This document shows, in pieces, positions 18,577 through 22,730 of a stretch of 64,000 nucleotides of DNA. The notes below the pieces were generated by a model. It saw only the letters and a program-made list of their open reading frames with translations. It made no database searches and was not told the DNA's origin. Each line of letters starts with the position of its first letter. The stretch's first letter is position 1. This DNA comes from a virus (lineage: Duplodnaviria > Caudoviricetes). A program made the translations under genes and the position numbers. Location: positions 1-64,000 of IMG/VR virus record IMGVR_UViG_3300038345_000076, one strand, 5' to 3'.

Positions 18577-19593
18577 ATGGAAGTCAACAGAGTATATAAT
18601 GAAGACTGCCTTACTGGATTGAAGAAACTTCCAGACAACTGCATTGACTGCTGCGTGACATCGCCACCATATTACGCCCTGCGTGACTATGGCATGGATG
18701 AGCAAATAGGACTGGAGGAAACACCACAAGCGTACATCGACAGACTGACGGACGTGTTCATGAATGTGTACCGAGTGCTGAAACCTACGGGCACCTGCTG
18801 GCTCAACATTGGCGACAGTTACAATGGCAACAAGAAAGGCAACACCGAGACCAACAAGAACAAGCGAGTAGCCGAGAGCAACCATTTCGAGAAAAAGCTA
18901 TGGGACGGCGCAAAGCAAAAGGACTTAATCGGTATTCCCTGGATGTTGGCTTTCACGCTGCGAGCAAAAGGCTGGTATCTGCGACAGGACATCATTTGGC
19001 ACAAGCCTAACGCAATGCCAGAAAGCGTTACTGACAGGCTGACAAAGAGCCATGAGTATATTTTCCTTATGAGCAAAAGCAGCAAGTATTACTTCGACCA
19101 TGAGGCAATACAAGAAGTCGCCACGGGGTATGATGGAAGAAAAGACACCATGATGCACGGCTCTCCTAAGTATAACATTATTCCTGTAATGCCGCATGGA
19201 AAGCGTCAAGATCTTACAAAGAACGAGCATCAGCGGTGGCGTTTCAAGAACCTACAAGAAGATGGTCAGCAGCCAAACACCATGCACCTTCGCCGTGCTG
19301 AAGGACTTCCTGATAAGCAATACCCTATCAGGAACAAACGAGACGTGTGGTCTGTGAATACCAAACCAGACCATAACGCCCATTTCGCTGTCTATCCTGA
19401 AGAATTGATAAGACCTTGCATCCTTGCAGGTTGTCCGAAAGACGGTATCGTTCTTGATCCGTTCATGGGTAGTGGTACGACGGCGAGAGTAGCACGGCAA
19501 TATGGCAGGAACTTTATCGGCTACGAATTGAATCCAGAATACATCAAAATTATAGAGCGTAAAATTGTCGTTGAACAGGATATGTTTATCTGA
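18577..19593 (+). CDS. Beta-class amino-MTase (SPPY; N4-cytosine-like), currently ON
   Basis: CVTSPPYY near the N-terminus, LDPFMGSGTT near the C-terminus. Confidence 0.92.
   Translation: MEVNRVYNEDCLTGLKKLPDNCIDCCVTSPPYYALRDYGMDEQIGLEETPQAYIDRLTDVFMNVYRVLKPTGTCWLNIGDSYNGNKKGNTETNKNKRVAESNHFEKKLWDGAKQKDLIGIPWMLAFTLRAKGWYLRQDIIWHKPNAMPESVTDRLTKSHEYIFLMSKSSKYYFDHEAIQEVATGYDGRKDTMMHGSPKYNIIPVMPHGKRQDLTKNEHQRWRFKNLQEDGQQPNTMHLRRAEGLPDKQYPIRNKRDVWSVNTKPDHNAHFAVYPEELIRPCILAGCPKDGIVLDPFMGSGTTARVARQYGRNFIGYELNPEYIKIIERKIVVEQDMFI
19175..19192 (-). repeat. Recombination site A2 (intragenic)
   Basis: ACATTA-TTCCTG-TAATGC; shares CATTACAGGAATAA (14 bp) inverted with A1. Confidence 0.8.
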
Positions 19594-19594
19594 C

Positions 19595-19612
19595 ACATTA
19601 TCTTTGTAATGT
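19595..19612 (-). repeat. Recombination site B1
   Basis: ACATTA-TCTTTG-TAATGT. Confidence 0.88.
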
Positions 19613-19844
19613 CGCCCCAATTCTTTTCTGCACTATCAGGATGCAGCACTTTGTGGGCGATTACGGCAGGTTGCTTGTTGATGTCTGGGTTCGCATCTTC
19701 TTCTGGATCGAACTCAGCCCAACCTACCAACTCGTAATCGAAATCTGGATAAATCTCCCGTAACCTGTTGAGAGCCAATGCCTGTGAGCCATATCCGGCA
19801 CAAATCTCAAATAGCCTAAGTTTATTATTTCTATTGTACTTCAT
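19599..19844 (-). CDS. Inverted N-terminal 82 codons of a cytosine-C5 DNA methyltransferase (motifs I-III)
   Basis: LRLFEICAGYGSQ (motif I), ELVGWAEFD (II), NWGDITKI (III); antisense to the operon. Confidence 0.9.
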
Positions 19845-19849
19845 AAGTC

Positions 19850-19867
19850 ACATTACAAAGATAAAGT
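19850..19867 (+). repeat. Recombination site B2
   Basis: agtcACATTA-CAAAGA-TAAAGT; 15-bp perfect inverted repeat (ACATTACAAAGATAA) with B1. Confidence 0.88.
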
Positions 19868-20415
19868 GGCAGGATTTACCCGACTTTGACCTTCTGAGTT
19901 ATTCCACGCCTTGCCAGAGTATCAGCCAGGCAGGGTTGCAACATGGCTTTACTGAAGGCAGCGGTACGAGGTCGAGCATCATCTGGAATGTGCGAGACTG
20001 CGTAAAGGCTAAAAGACCAAAGTTTCTGATGTTAGAGAACGTGAAGGCAATGGTCAGCAGCAAGTATGTCGGATTGTTCAATGTCTGGCAGCGAGAATTG
20101 GAGAAGTTAGGATATGCCAATTTCGGTCAAGTGCTAAATGCTAAAGATTTTGGTGTTCCTCAGAATAGAGAGCGCATTTTTCTTATTAGCATAAGGATAG
20201 ACGATACAGAGCCGAAGTATTTCTTTCCAGAGCCGAGACCTCTGGAGGTGTGCCTCGCAGATGTCCTTGAAGAAGAGGTTGACGAGAAGTATTTCCTCAG
20301 TGACGAAATGCTTGCAAGGTTCTGTGAGAAGAGTCTGGAAGAAGAGAATGAAACTGTACCAGAATCGCAGGAAGATGGCGAAACCGACTTTGAAGACTTC
20401 TTTGTTGCTCAGTGA
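19852..20415 (+). CDS. Cytosine-C5 MTase catalytic part (motifs IV-VIII); lacks its start in this orientation
   Basis: YSTPCQSIS (IV), LMLENV (VI), GVPQNRERIF (VIII). Confidence 0.9.
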   Translation: MTKIKWQDLPDFDLLSYSTPCQSISQAGLQHGFTEGSGTRSSIIWNVRDCVKAKRPKFLMLENVKAMVSSKYVGLFNVWQRELEKLGYANFGQVLNAKDFGVPQNRERIFLISIRIDDTEPKYFFPEPRPLEVCLADVLEEEVDEKYFLSDEMLARFCEKSLEEENETVPESQEDGETDFEDFFVAQ

Positions 20416-20544
20416 CGATGTGATTGTGGCAGGACGTATCAGTTCGTCTCAAGACGGGATAGTTGTTATGGGGGGGGTATTTCCCCATGCCATACAGCAG
20501 GACACGGAAACTGCCCGAAAATTGTGGTCATTATCGAGAATTAA
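20348..20544 (+). CDS. TRD mini-gene M1 (frameshifted at G8; start uncertain)
   Basis: ...DDVIVAGRISSSQDGIVVM-(G tract)-GISPCHTAGHGNCPKIVVIIEN*. Confidence 0.6.
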
Positions 20545-20677
20545 GCCGCAGAATGTTTGTCAAGGTGGAGTTGCCTGTACTCTTAATACAAGATATGAAA
20601 ATGCGGCGATCAAAGACTATATCAGTTTGAGACACTATCCCCAAACTTGCGTGATGTATGTTTTTGAAACATTGTAA
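20522..20677 (+). CDS. TRD mini-gene M2
   Basis: ...RIKPQNVCQGGVACTLNTRYE...CVMYVFETL*. Confidence 0.6.
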   Translation: MWSLSRIKPQNVCQGGVACTLNTRYENAAIKDYISLRHYPQTCVMYVFETL

Positions 20678-20833
20678 ATTACCCCCCCCAATCGTCTTAT
20701 TGGACTTCCAACCACAGCAGATGGGATAGCACCGACGATTACAGCAGTCTATGAGACTACGGGGCCTGCAAATATGATAAGTGTAGCCCATTATCCGAAA
20801 ATGGGTATCGGAGTAATCTATGAAACAGAGTAA
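20664..20833 (+). CDS. TRD mini-gene M3 (frameshifted at C8)
   Basis: TTG-KHCKL-(C tract)-NRLIGLPTTADGIAPTITAVYE...GIGVIYETE*. Confidence 0.6.
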
Positions 20834-21011
20834 ACTAACTGGTGGCAAGCGATTCCAGAAATGGATTGAGAAAGGCGACCTTCCAAATGGGGGGGGGTAT
20901 TTTATCGACATTTACAATCAGATGTATAACAAGCAGGGAATCGCAGGTACTATACATACAAGAATCAACGATGGAAACTATTGGTGGGTCACACAGGTTG
21001 TTGAGACGTAA
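20820..21011 (+). CDS. TRD mini-gene M4 (G9, in frame)
   Basis: ...KQGIAGTIHTRI...WVTQVVET*. Confidence 0.65.
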   Translation: MKQSKLTGGKRFQKWIEKGDLPNGGGYFIDIYNQMYNKQGIAGTIHTRINDGNYWWVTQVVET

Positions 21012-21165
21012 TTTTGCCCCCCCCAGAATTTTACCATTGAATCCGATGCCAGACGGCACTTGCAGGACATTGAAAGCAGTTTACTATAAAACAGGCAGAA
21101 TCAATTTCCAATATCACAATGATTGGGGAACTACTGGAGTAGCAGTTGTGTATGAGACAGATTAG
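21001..21165 (+). CDS. TRD mini-gene M5 (C8, in frame)
   Basis: ...LNPMPDGTCRTLKAVYYK...GVAVVYETD*. Confidence 0.65.
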   Translation: MRRNFAPPRILPLNPMPDGTCRTLKAVYYKTGRINFQYHNDWGTTGVAVVYETD

Positions 21166-21307
21166 GAATATCTATTACGGGTGGTCGAGAAATGCCAAAG
21201 GTGAGATTGACAACTGGTACAAATGCGATATATCAAACTCTATCACAACTTTTGTCGGTGGTGGATGGAACACTTCACCCAAAGTAGCTGTAGTCTATGA
21301 AACGTAG
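21152..21307 (+). CDS. TRD mini-gene M6
   Basis: MRQIRNIYYGWSR...DISNSITTFVGGGWNTSPKVAVVYET*. Confidence 0.65.
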   Translation: MRQIRNIYYGWSRNAKGEIDNWYKCDISNSITTFVGGGWNTSPKVAVVYET

Positions 21308-21461
21308 GGACAAGGTGATACAGTGTGGCTATTTGTTCTTTACAGATAGCAATTCACAGGCATGGAGGGTATATGACAAGTACGGGATTTCACCAACACT
21401 TGATTGCTGTAGCGGTGGAAACAGACAGCCAAAGATCTTGGTTGCTTATGAGACGGAGTGA
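21297..21461 (+). CDS. TRD mini-gene M7
   Basis: MKRRDKVIQCG...RVYDKYGISPTLDCCSGGNRQPKILVAYETE*. Confidence 0.75.
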   Translation: MKRRDKVIQCGYLFFTDSNSQAWRVYDKYGISPTLDCCSGGNRQPKILVAYETE

Positions 21462-21603
21462 TAAGATTATTATTGTTGGAAATGTGTGGAATAGTAGGCA
21501 AAACGGCAGCGTATTGGACGTAAGAGGCATTTCGCACTGCATTACCATTGGTCAGCATTCAGGTACAGAACCTAAGATTAGAGTAGTCTATGAAAACGAT
21601 TAA
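21448..21603 (+). CDS. TRD mini-gene M8
   Basis: MRRSDKIIIVGN...VLDVRGISHCITIGQHSGTEPKIRVVYEND*. Confidence 0.7.
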   Translation: MRRSDKIIIVGNVWNSRQNGSVLDVRGISHCITIGQHSGTEPKIRVVYEND

Positions 21604-21754
21604 GGCTATTGGTTGTGCAATCCGAGGCCGTTCAAAAGGAGAATGGCATAATAGTGAACACAGGCAGATGCTTGAAATGAACTCAGACCGCTTCAGCAAT
21701 GCAGTCAGTACAGTTCAAAAGGATTTTATGGTAGCTATGCTTTATGAAACATGA
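21590..21754 (+). CDS. TRD mini-gene M9
   Basis: MKTIKAIGCAIRGR...QMLEMNSDRFSNAVSTVQKDFMVAMLYET*. Confidence 0.7.
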   Translation: MKTIKAIGCAIRGRSKGEWHNSEHRQMLEMNSDRFSNAVSTVQKDFMVAMLYET

Positions 21755-21890
21755 TTATATTGTTTTAGCTCTTGGAAATTGGAGCGATTGGCAGGATGAT
21801 AGAGTATTTGACACCGAAGGTATCAGCATTACCTTAGACACTAACTGTAGTAAGAGACCATTACTAAGGATTATAAATGAAACTGATTGA
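21744..21890 (+). CDS. TRD mini-gene M10
   Basis: MKHDYIVLALGNW...DRVFDTEGISITLDTNCSKRPLLRIINETD*. Confidence 0.7.
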   Translation: MKHDYIVLALGNWSDWQDDRVFDTEGISITLDTNCSKRPLLRIINETD

Positions 21891-22071
21891 TGTGCGACGT
21901 ATATCTCGTACAAGAACGGCAGAAGAGAGATTGAGGCGGCATTTGTACGGAGAGACGGGTGCAACCTTTTCAAAGGGCAAGTACATGACTTTGGGCGGTC
22001 ATGTGATGGGTACAATAACTACATTCATCAATAAGGATAATCTTGTTGCGGAAATTTATGATACTATCTGA
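21877..22071 (+). CDS. TRD mini-gene M11
   Basis: ...RTRTAEER...VMGTITTFINKDNLVAEIYDTI*. Confidence 0.65.
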   Translation: MKLIDVRRISRTRTAEERLRRHLYGETGATFSKGKYMTLGGHVMGTITTFINKDNLVAEIYDTI

Positions 22072-22201
22072 TGCTAAGAACGGAGCAAAACGGATGCGTG
22101 ATCACAAGATGGTATTTGAATGTGGTAATGAAAGTTTTTGCAATGCGCTGACACAAAATATAGATCATAGTTTAATAGTTTTACTATATGAAACAGAATA
22201 G
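22058..22201 (+). CDS. TRD mini-gene M12
   Basis: MILSDAKNG...SFCNALTQNIDHSLIVLLYETE*. Confidence 0.6.
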   Translation: MILSDAKNGAKRMRDHKMVFECGNESFCNALTQNIDHSLIVLLYETE

Positions 22202-22730
22202 AGTTTTTCACAGACAAGTTCGTGTTGTTTACAGGGCTTGCAGAAGACTTTACGGGAAAGAACGGACGCAGGATGAATGCCTAAAGTTATTTAAGATAAT
22301 CTTTCCTGAGTATTACAAAGCCAAAAATTCTAATGAGAAATACAAACAACTATCGGATGAATCTTATAATAAGTTGAATGCTTTGCTTTCAACGTGGATT
22401 CCAGAAGATGGTGCTTTGCATGATGTGATATGCTATACTCTCAATGAAGCAGATAGATGTATGTTACGTGAAGAGTTCTTGCAATTCTGTGAGGACATCA
22501 TGCCAGTTGTGATGCGTATAAGGAAACTTACACCGAGGGAGTGCTTTCGCTTGATGGGCGTTTCAGAGCCAGACATTGACAAGATGCTGAACAGCGGGAT
22601 ATCGAACAGTGCTTGCTATCGGCTTGCAGGCAATTCAATAGTAGTCGATGTAATGGTAGCTTTGTTTGATAAATTATTAGTCAATACGGAGGAAGAAAGA
22701 AAATTTGGAACTCAATTAACCCTTTTTTGA
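22188..22730 (+). CDS. Cytosine-C5 MTase C-terminal subunit (motifs IX-X)
   Basis: RIRKLTPRECFRLMG (IX), YRLAGNSIVVDV (X). Confidence 0.88.
   Translation: MKQNRVFHRQVRVVYRACRRLYGKERTQDECLKLFKIIFPEYYKAKNSNEKYKQLSDESYNKLNALLSTWIPEDGALHDVICYTLNEADRCMLREEFLQFCEDIMPVVMRIRKLTPRECFRLMGVSEPDIDKMLNSGISNSACYRLAGNSIVVDVMVALFDKLLVNTEEERKFGTQLTLF

Follow-up and report, generated by a model that had tools for sequence, protein, structure and literature searches.

Four long runs of G or C lie in the 5' parts of small, TRD-like mini-genes of a rumen phage, and we consider it likely that they are hypermutable contingency tracts at which slippage of the DNA gates single, trans-acting modules of a cytosine methyltransferase. 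The phage, with a genome of approximately 106 kb, carries what is by its motifs a cytosine DNA methylase split into a core and twelve small mini-genes for putative recognition modules, and the lineage probably varies which DNA sequences it methylates. The window referred to throughout is the whole stretch of 64,000 nucleotides that was analyzed, and the conclusions drawn here come from reading this DNA and that of its relatives. The proposal that such tracts toggle individual modules was made in an original prediction from the letters of the window. It is upheld by tract lengths that vary between close relatives and form the sole indels in near-identical alignments, and by out-of-frame modules that remain intact and under purifying selection.

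A split C5 methyltransferase and its module array

The features of the locus are collected in Table 1. All methyltransferase motifs from I to X are present, with PF00145 matching both the core and the C-terminal ORF and motif I located on an inverted N-terminal segment. Twelve mini-ORFs of 47-64 aa (M1-M12) separate the core from the C-terminal ORF, and they end in (V)VYET or a close variant followed by a stop. The next module usually starts at an ATG within the tATGa of the preceding YE(T)/YD(T) end, which moves the frame on by +1 at each step. With each module closed by a stop and followed by an overlapping ATG in the +1 frame, the array modules do not form one polypeptide with the core. A +1 ribosomal frameshift at the module junctions was also considered and was rejected: no constant codon precedes the stops, and 11 of 12 junctions have a conserved ATG. 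That the DNA is from a phage is indicated by the neighboring genes, among them a DnaB-type helicase, an amino-methyltransferase and an HNH-type ORF. The C-terminal ORF starts with MKQNRVFHRQVRVVYRAC..., in which VRVVY is similar to the terminal (V)VYE of the modules (window 22188-22240). This N-terminal stretch is highly conserved in relatives and is possibly a docking or strand-pairing element.

Table 1. Features of the methyltransferase locus and its G/C runs (positions in the window)
Feature	Position	Strand	Description
N-terminal segment, C5 methyltransferase	19521..19847	-	motif I FEICAGYGS ... GDITKI; by translation
Catalytic core	19768..20415	+	PCQ, ENV and QNRER motifs; PF00145 E 4e-40; TGA 20413-20415
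Leader + M1/M2 ORF as read at G8	20375..20677	+	MAKPTLKTSLLLSDDVIVAGRISSSQDGIVVMGG, out-of-frame M1, M2 ending VFETL
T1	20470-20477	+	G8; predicted three-state selector: G9 gives M1, G8 gives M2, G7/G10 give an 84-aa nonsense product
M3	20658..20833	+	ATG 20658 inside end of M2; body 20678-20833; OFF at C8
T2	20682-20689	+	C8; codons 9-11 of M3
M4	20820..21011	+	63 aa; ON at G9
T3	20889-20897	+	G9; codons 24-26 of M4
M5	20971..21165	+	64 aa, own ATG; overlaps 3' part of M4; ON at C8
T4	21017-21024	+	C8; codons 17-18 of M5
M6-M12	21152..22201	+	47-64 aa each, without long runs
C-terminal ORF	22188..22730	+	motif IX (RKLTPRE), motif X (GNSIVVDV); PF00145 E 3e-7

In the window the N-terminal segment is flipped, between 23-nt inverted repeats (19590-19612 and 19850-19872, 91% complementary), and the opposite, upright orientation is found in sequencing runs X2 and X4 and in most relatives. 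With its first 82 codons inverted, the catalytic gene, and with it the master switch, reads as OFF in this genome. Because the catalytic gene is inverted in this molecule, the tract states described below would be without a phenotype here. The relatives were drawn from core-protein searches and comprise 80 viral contigs and 80 metagenome contigs. In one of them (L009:3701-4477, as in L133) the core ORF holds an intein-like insert that ends in ...NGAIAHN directly before the catalytic CQ of PCQ, and in L112 and L120 about 1.05-1.12 kb lie between the N-terminal segment and the core.

The modules show a pattern like that of recognition domains, for example VIQCGYLFF..SQAWRVYDKYGISPTLDCCSGGNRQPKILVAYETE. 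Their identity as such is putative and draws on their position between motifs VIII and IX, on a pattern of the G-[IV]-[SA]-P-T-[LI] type and on fused relatives such as L013. The latter (L013:1573-3139) encodes a methyltransferase of the classical type, with several domains fused, but its frame is interrupted by runs of G9, G8 and G7; the last of these (2573-2579) divides the upstream modules from the part with motifs IX-X. In another relative (L015:3302-4723) the catalytic ORF is circularly permuted, with motifs IX-X ahead of I-VIII, and is flanked on both sides by module mini-ORFs with YE + stop ends, several of which carry G7-G8 runs. Pfam scans of the modules gave no match, and a profile of M7/M8-type modules had 0 matches among PDB sequences at E values up to 10. 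An AlphaFold2 model of an isolated module, built on an 8-sequence alignment, reached a pLDDT of 51.5, too poor for a fold search. The ESM Atlas gave unnamed clusters of about 50 aa, and in the nearest named cluster 26% of members carry PF00145, a weak lead only.

Four G/C runs within the first five modules

The four runs (T1-T4) lie within 555 bp, in the first five mini-genes of the array, and are the sole G/C runs of at least 7 both in the window and in the entire 105,850-bp genome. A first-order Markov model predicts 0.35 G/C runs of at least 8 in the whole genome, in which four runs of 8-9 are observed. The original prediction had placed all four exactly, in position as well as in length, and the clustering of long G/C runs that it described holds against the genome as a whole. 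On the coding strand the C runs encode Pro-Pro-Pro and the G runs Gly-Gly-Gly. AT stands directly before both G runs, which creates an ATG at the run itself (20468-20470 and 20887-20889), and ATGGGGGGGGTATTT is found at both sites; this feature is kept in L084 and is absent from L003-type relatives. By translation, the genotype of the window is M1 off, M2 on (G8), M3 off (C8), M4 on (G9), and M5 on (C8).

The first run lies behind a leader that begins at ATG 20375 and overlaps the end of the core ORF; this ATG, and not 20468, is most likely the true start of the M1/M2 leader. At G8 the leader reads without a stop across the out-of-frame M1 into M2, giving a product of 100 aa (69 aa for the same frame from ATG 20468). 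At G9 it gives a 56-aa M1 (...GGGISPCHTAGHGNCPKIVVIIEN) with its stop at 20542-20544, and at G7 or G10 it runs into nonsense. Translation therefore agrees with the earlier expectations that M1 requires G9 (or G6) and is OFF at G8, and that G8 opens a stop-free path through M1 into the frame of M2.

It had been further proposed that T1 is an either/or switch between M1 and M2, and this reading of the sequences is supported. M2 has no ATG of its own between T1 and its body, and the layout in which a length n yields M1 and n-1 yields M2 recurs in two relatives, with both states found in nature. In L006, whose core is 70% identical to that of the window, G10 gives M1 and G9 gives M2, and the contig carries G9, the M2 state; in L009, with a core 58% identical, G9 gives M1 and is the length carried. 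The X3 contig, from a 96% identical strain, has G9 at T1, which is the M1 state in the frames of the window. Genomes that lack M1 fuse M2 to the same leader: in L003, L005, L081 and L084 M1 is absent through an in-frame deletion and M2 is joined directly to it (...TLKTSLSLSRIKPQNV...), and in sequencing runs X2 and X4 M1 is missing as a 123-bp in-frame skip from 20413 to 20537. Other joints omit whole modules (20671 to 21040 and 20827 to 21038).

The dual-coded M1/M2 stretch would also suit a constitutive two-product design, in which the runs are read at the level of the RNA or the ribosome and slippage or frameshifting gives a fixed mixture of products in place of heritable switches. We find this explanation improbable, however, since the length of the run in the DNA differs between near-identical sequences and is alone sufficient to change the frame. 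Known transcriptional slippage is, moreover, efficient mainly on A/T runs.

Natural variation in tract length

The relatives closest to the window (58-96% core identity) share this type of module array, in most cases with G/C runs of 7-10 in it. In nine annotated relatives, 27 runs of at least 7 were counted in 10.4 kb of arrays vs. 1 in 50.4 kb of flanks, an enrichment of more than 100-fold, and the single flank run lies in an upstream module of L015. Across the 160 loci, run counts fall geometrically from 1242 to 217 to 29 at lengths 4, 5, and 6, and then number 24, 45, 29, and 8 at lengths 7-10. This second mode at 8-9 after a geometric fall is the signature of selection for long runs. On the coding strand, the runs of at least 7 in the 160 loci comprise 82 of G and 24 of C. 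A TA, often as TAA or TAG, comes after 44 of the 106 distinct runs and puts an immediate stop in one alternative frame.

A comparison of tract length across related genomes, which the original prediction had proposed as a check, shows the tracts to be polymorphic and their flanks conserved, in alignments of 92-99.6% identity. Orthologous runs in close relatives have lengths of C7, C8, C9 and C10 and of G8, G9 and G10. Between L001 and L093, which are 99.6% identical over 669 bp, the sole gap is in a G run, and between L003 and L005, which are 92% identical, the only frame-changing indels of the array are in two runs (the alignment has one further gap, of 3 nt, at its extreme end). The X3 contig, which comes from a different study and is 96% identical over 1519 bp, has only 2 indels, namely one additional G at T1 and one additional G at T3 (G10). 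Sequencing run X2 has one C fewer at T2 (C7). The segment shared by L001 and L093 (L001:4556-5223 vs. L093:3612-4280) belongs to the array, whereas the adjacent core is only 83% identical, a contrast that points to mosaic exchange of arrays between cores.

It should be noted that all of these comparisons of run length are between assembled contigs. This leaves room for an explanation without switching, in which the differences are fixed between lineages, reflect the decay of redundant modules or are homopolymer errors in metagenome assemblies. Independent Logan contigs of the probable source run X1 have the same run lengths as the window, with one length per run, as such an explanation would have it. 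An ordinary frameshift is also on record: in L084:2215-2225, a change from T3 to T4 (vs. L005) shifts the frame of a module outside any long G/C run. This is ordinary mutation or assembly error, and not every frame break is a switch. However, neither the enrichment of runs in arrays nor the second mode of their lengths sits well with errors or decay, differences of 2 nt exist (C8 vs. C10), two assemblers agree on the source run, and L093 and L094, from different assemblies, agree with each other. Together with the constraint on silent modules described below, these observations make an absence of switching unlikely. Many contigs of relatives end within the module array (L001, L002, L005, and L006); that of L006 ends within a G8 run (L006:5104-5111) and that of L103 begins at one (L103:3-10). 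Such contig ends at runs could reflect length heterogeneity within the sample or poor assembly at G runs.

The constraint on silent modules is seen at M3. At C8 the ATG at 20658 opens a 23-aa peptide that ends at 20729, and C9 would give a 58-aa M3, in line with the prediction that M3 is OFF here and needs C9. Among the orthologues of its run, C7 is found in L086 and L004, C8 in the window, L081, L088 and L003, C9 in L084, and C10 in L005, L001, L093, L096 and L008. Thus 5 of 12 are in frame and 7 of 12 are OFF, and each OFF copy is one base from an intact module of 55-60 aa. The 46-codon body is open in all seven OFF copies, and in pairs of OFF copies pN is 0.19 and pS 0.72, which is near saturation, giving a pN/pS of 0.26 that denotes purifying selection. 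This counts against fixed differences or decay: OFF modules are conserved, unlike a module that is left untranslated, and OFF states must therefore be transient on an evolutionary time scale.

The two remaining runs behave as gates of single modules. M4, read from ATG 20820, is in frame at G9 and M5 is in frame at C8, both as predicted. Orthologues of the M4 run are divided between three ON copies with G9 (the window, L003, and L093) and four OFF copies with G8 (L084, L005, L001, and L096). The M5 run is C8 and ON in the window, C8 and OFF in L004, and C9 and OFF in L008; L003, L005, L081 and L084 have no run at this position. It had also been suggested that the loss of one G from M4 would cause read-through into M5, as a second either/or switch. 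In the window the read-through at G8 is real and gives 114 aa, but as a design the switch is not supported, since the G8 frame of M4 stops straight after the run, at 28 aa, in L084, L003, L005, L001, L093 and L096, and M5 has a conserved ATG of its own. Similarly, the remark that M2 and M5 both lack an ATG at their junction is correct for both, but M5 has an in-frame ATG at 20971 that is conserved in L003, L005 and L084. TTG codons also lie at 20998 and 21001.

A further possibility is that a small shufflon is at work, which flips module segments at inverted-repeat recombination sites formed by the alternating G and C runs with their similar flanks. Inversion switches are used elsewhere in this phage, and two pairs of inverted repeats include the runs, I3 (20469-20489 / 20670-20690, 81%) and I4 (20675-20692 / 20887-20904, 89%). 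However, the minus strand of these segments codes for nothing like a module, the sole opposite-strand joints in four sequencing runs are 19597/19864 and 19613/19850, and L099, L102 and L115 have 5-7 G runs and no C run. The coding of proline triplets by the C runs and of glycine triplets by the G runs speaks against it as well. A shufflon between G and C runs was rejected on these grounds, and we hold it to be very improbable.

Proposed mechanism

Under the slippage reading, slipped-strand mispairing during replication of the phage DNA would add or remove one G or C, at a rate that we likewise infer, and the change in length would shift the body of a module into or out of frame with its start codon. 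T2, T3 and T4 would be simple ON/OFF gates of M3, M4 and M5, respectively. T1, located in a dual-coded stretch behind a shared leader, would select M1 (n), M2 (n-1) or neither. Each mini-protein would confer one specificity, in trans, on the core and C-terminal chains. The benefit may be one of bet-hedging against two kinds of restriction enzyme, one that methylation blocks and one that attacks methylated DNA.

The arrangement is consistent with the runs forming a layer beneath the inversion switch of the catalytic gene, as had been proposed. The full scheme would be a combinatorial switchboard, in which heritable and reversible slippage at four runs, acting through mini-proteins in trans, would let a single phage lineage sample up to 24 methylation repertoires under a recombinase-driven ON/OFF inversion of the catalytic gene. 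For this combination of parts we see the case for and against as evenly balanced.

Comparison with known systems

Repeat-driven switching of bacterial methyltransferases is well established and includes Type III mod genes, Type I hsdM/hsdS and Mycoplasma Type II/III enzymes with poly(G) (PMC12707154, PMC7383803, PMC9465063). As in these phasevarions, a homopolymer lies in a methyltransferase-related ORF, a single base shifts the frame and length is polymorphic between close strains. Here, however, the putative enzyme is a phage C5 cytosine methyltransferase and not a Type I/III N6-adenine one, effects on gene regulation are not implied and the runs would gate single modules (4 runs, 5 modules), not the whole enzyme. 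The locus shares with SSR contingency loci an over-represented run within an ORF, length polymorphism with conserved flanks and an intact OFF ORF one step from ON.

The closest analogue of T1 is the Type I system NgoAV of Neisseria gonorrhoeae, in which, as reported in PMC9577141 with reference to Adamczyk-Poplawska 2011, specificity is switched through a polyG in hsdS1 that brings about the fusion of this gene with hsdS2. In both, the length of a run selects alternative specificity products, beyond a simple ON or OFF, at the sequence level in the present case. NgoAV differs in being a Type I HsdS system that acts on N6-adenine, in its location on a bacterial chromosome and in alternating between fusion and truncation, whereas T1 serves two dual-coded modules behind one leader.

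Multispecific C5 methyltransferases have been described from the Bacillus phages SPR, phi3T, rho11, H2 and phiBssHII (references 45 and 56-59 of PMC8936443; reference 31 of PMC12707154). These are likewise phage C5 enzymes with one catalytic core and tandem recognition domains between motifs VIII and IX, where the domains of the present locus are putative. In contrast, all of their domains are in one polypeptide, and homopolymer switches have not been described for them. The modules found here are separate ORFs, five of them governed by runs, and L013 is an intermediate between the two, being fused but broken by G7-G9 runs.

Phages with switching tracts have also been described. Hypermutable polyG tracts generate phenotypic diversity within populations of Campylobacter phages and, according to the title of the report, allow them to evade bacterial resistance (Sorensen et al. 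2021, Cell Rep 35:109214; cited in PMC12823448, ref. 58). Like the runs described here these tracts are phage-encoded, but they are not known to be in specificity modules for DNA modification. The Campylobacter-phage tracts are reported from structural genes, including receptor-binding ones, where they affect host range.

An enzyme in several chains has precedents among C5 methyltransferases. M.AquI and M.EcoHK31I are naturally split, and fragment complementation has been obtained for M.SssI, M.HhaI and M.BspRI (PMC3404938). As in our model, separate chains that are split in the variable region work; unlike it, these enzymes consist of two fixed chains, with no exchangeable module array and no switches. 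An assembly of core, module and C-terminal chain is plausible because known C5 enzymes work as split chains, and the layout of L015, where module mini-ORFs stand to either side of the permuted catalytic ORF, adds to this plausibility. Our literature search found no paper on a phage C5 enzyme with recognition modules that are encoded separately and gated by runs.

Implications for phage biology

Phage methyltransferases are known to provide escape from restriction, and repeat slippage is a known means by which bacteria switch theirs; both appear to be combined here in a new form. If this is true, the phage varies the sequences that it methylates module by module, as a hedge between enzymes whose restriction is prevented by methylation and enzymes whose target is methylated DNA. 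This would also account for the breaking of metagenome assemblies at these loci. With modules of a small size (47-64 aa) and with ON and OFF alleles available in nature, the locus offers a directly testable model of plug-in recognition domains of C5 methyltransferases. It may likewise serve as a model of phase variation in the viruses of gut and rumen Bacteroidota.
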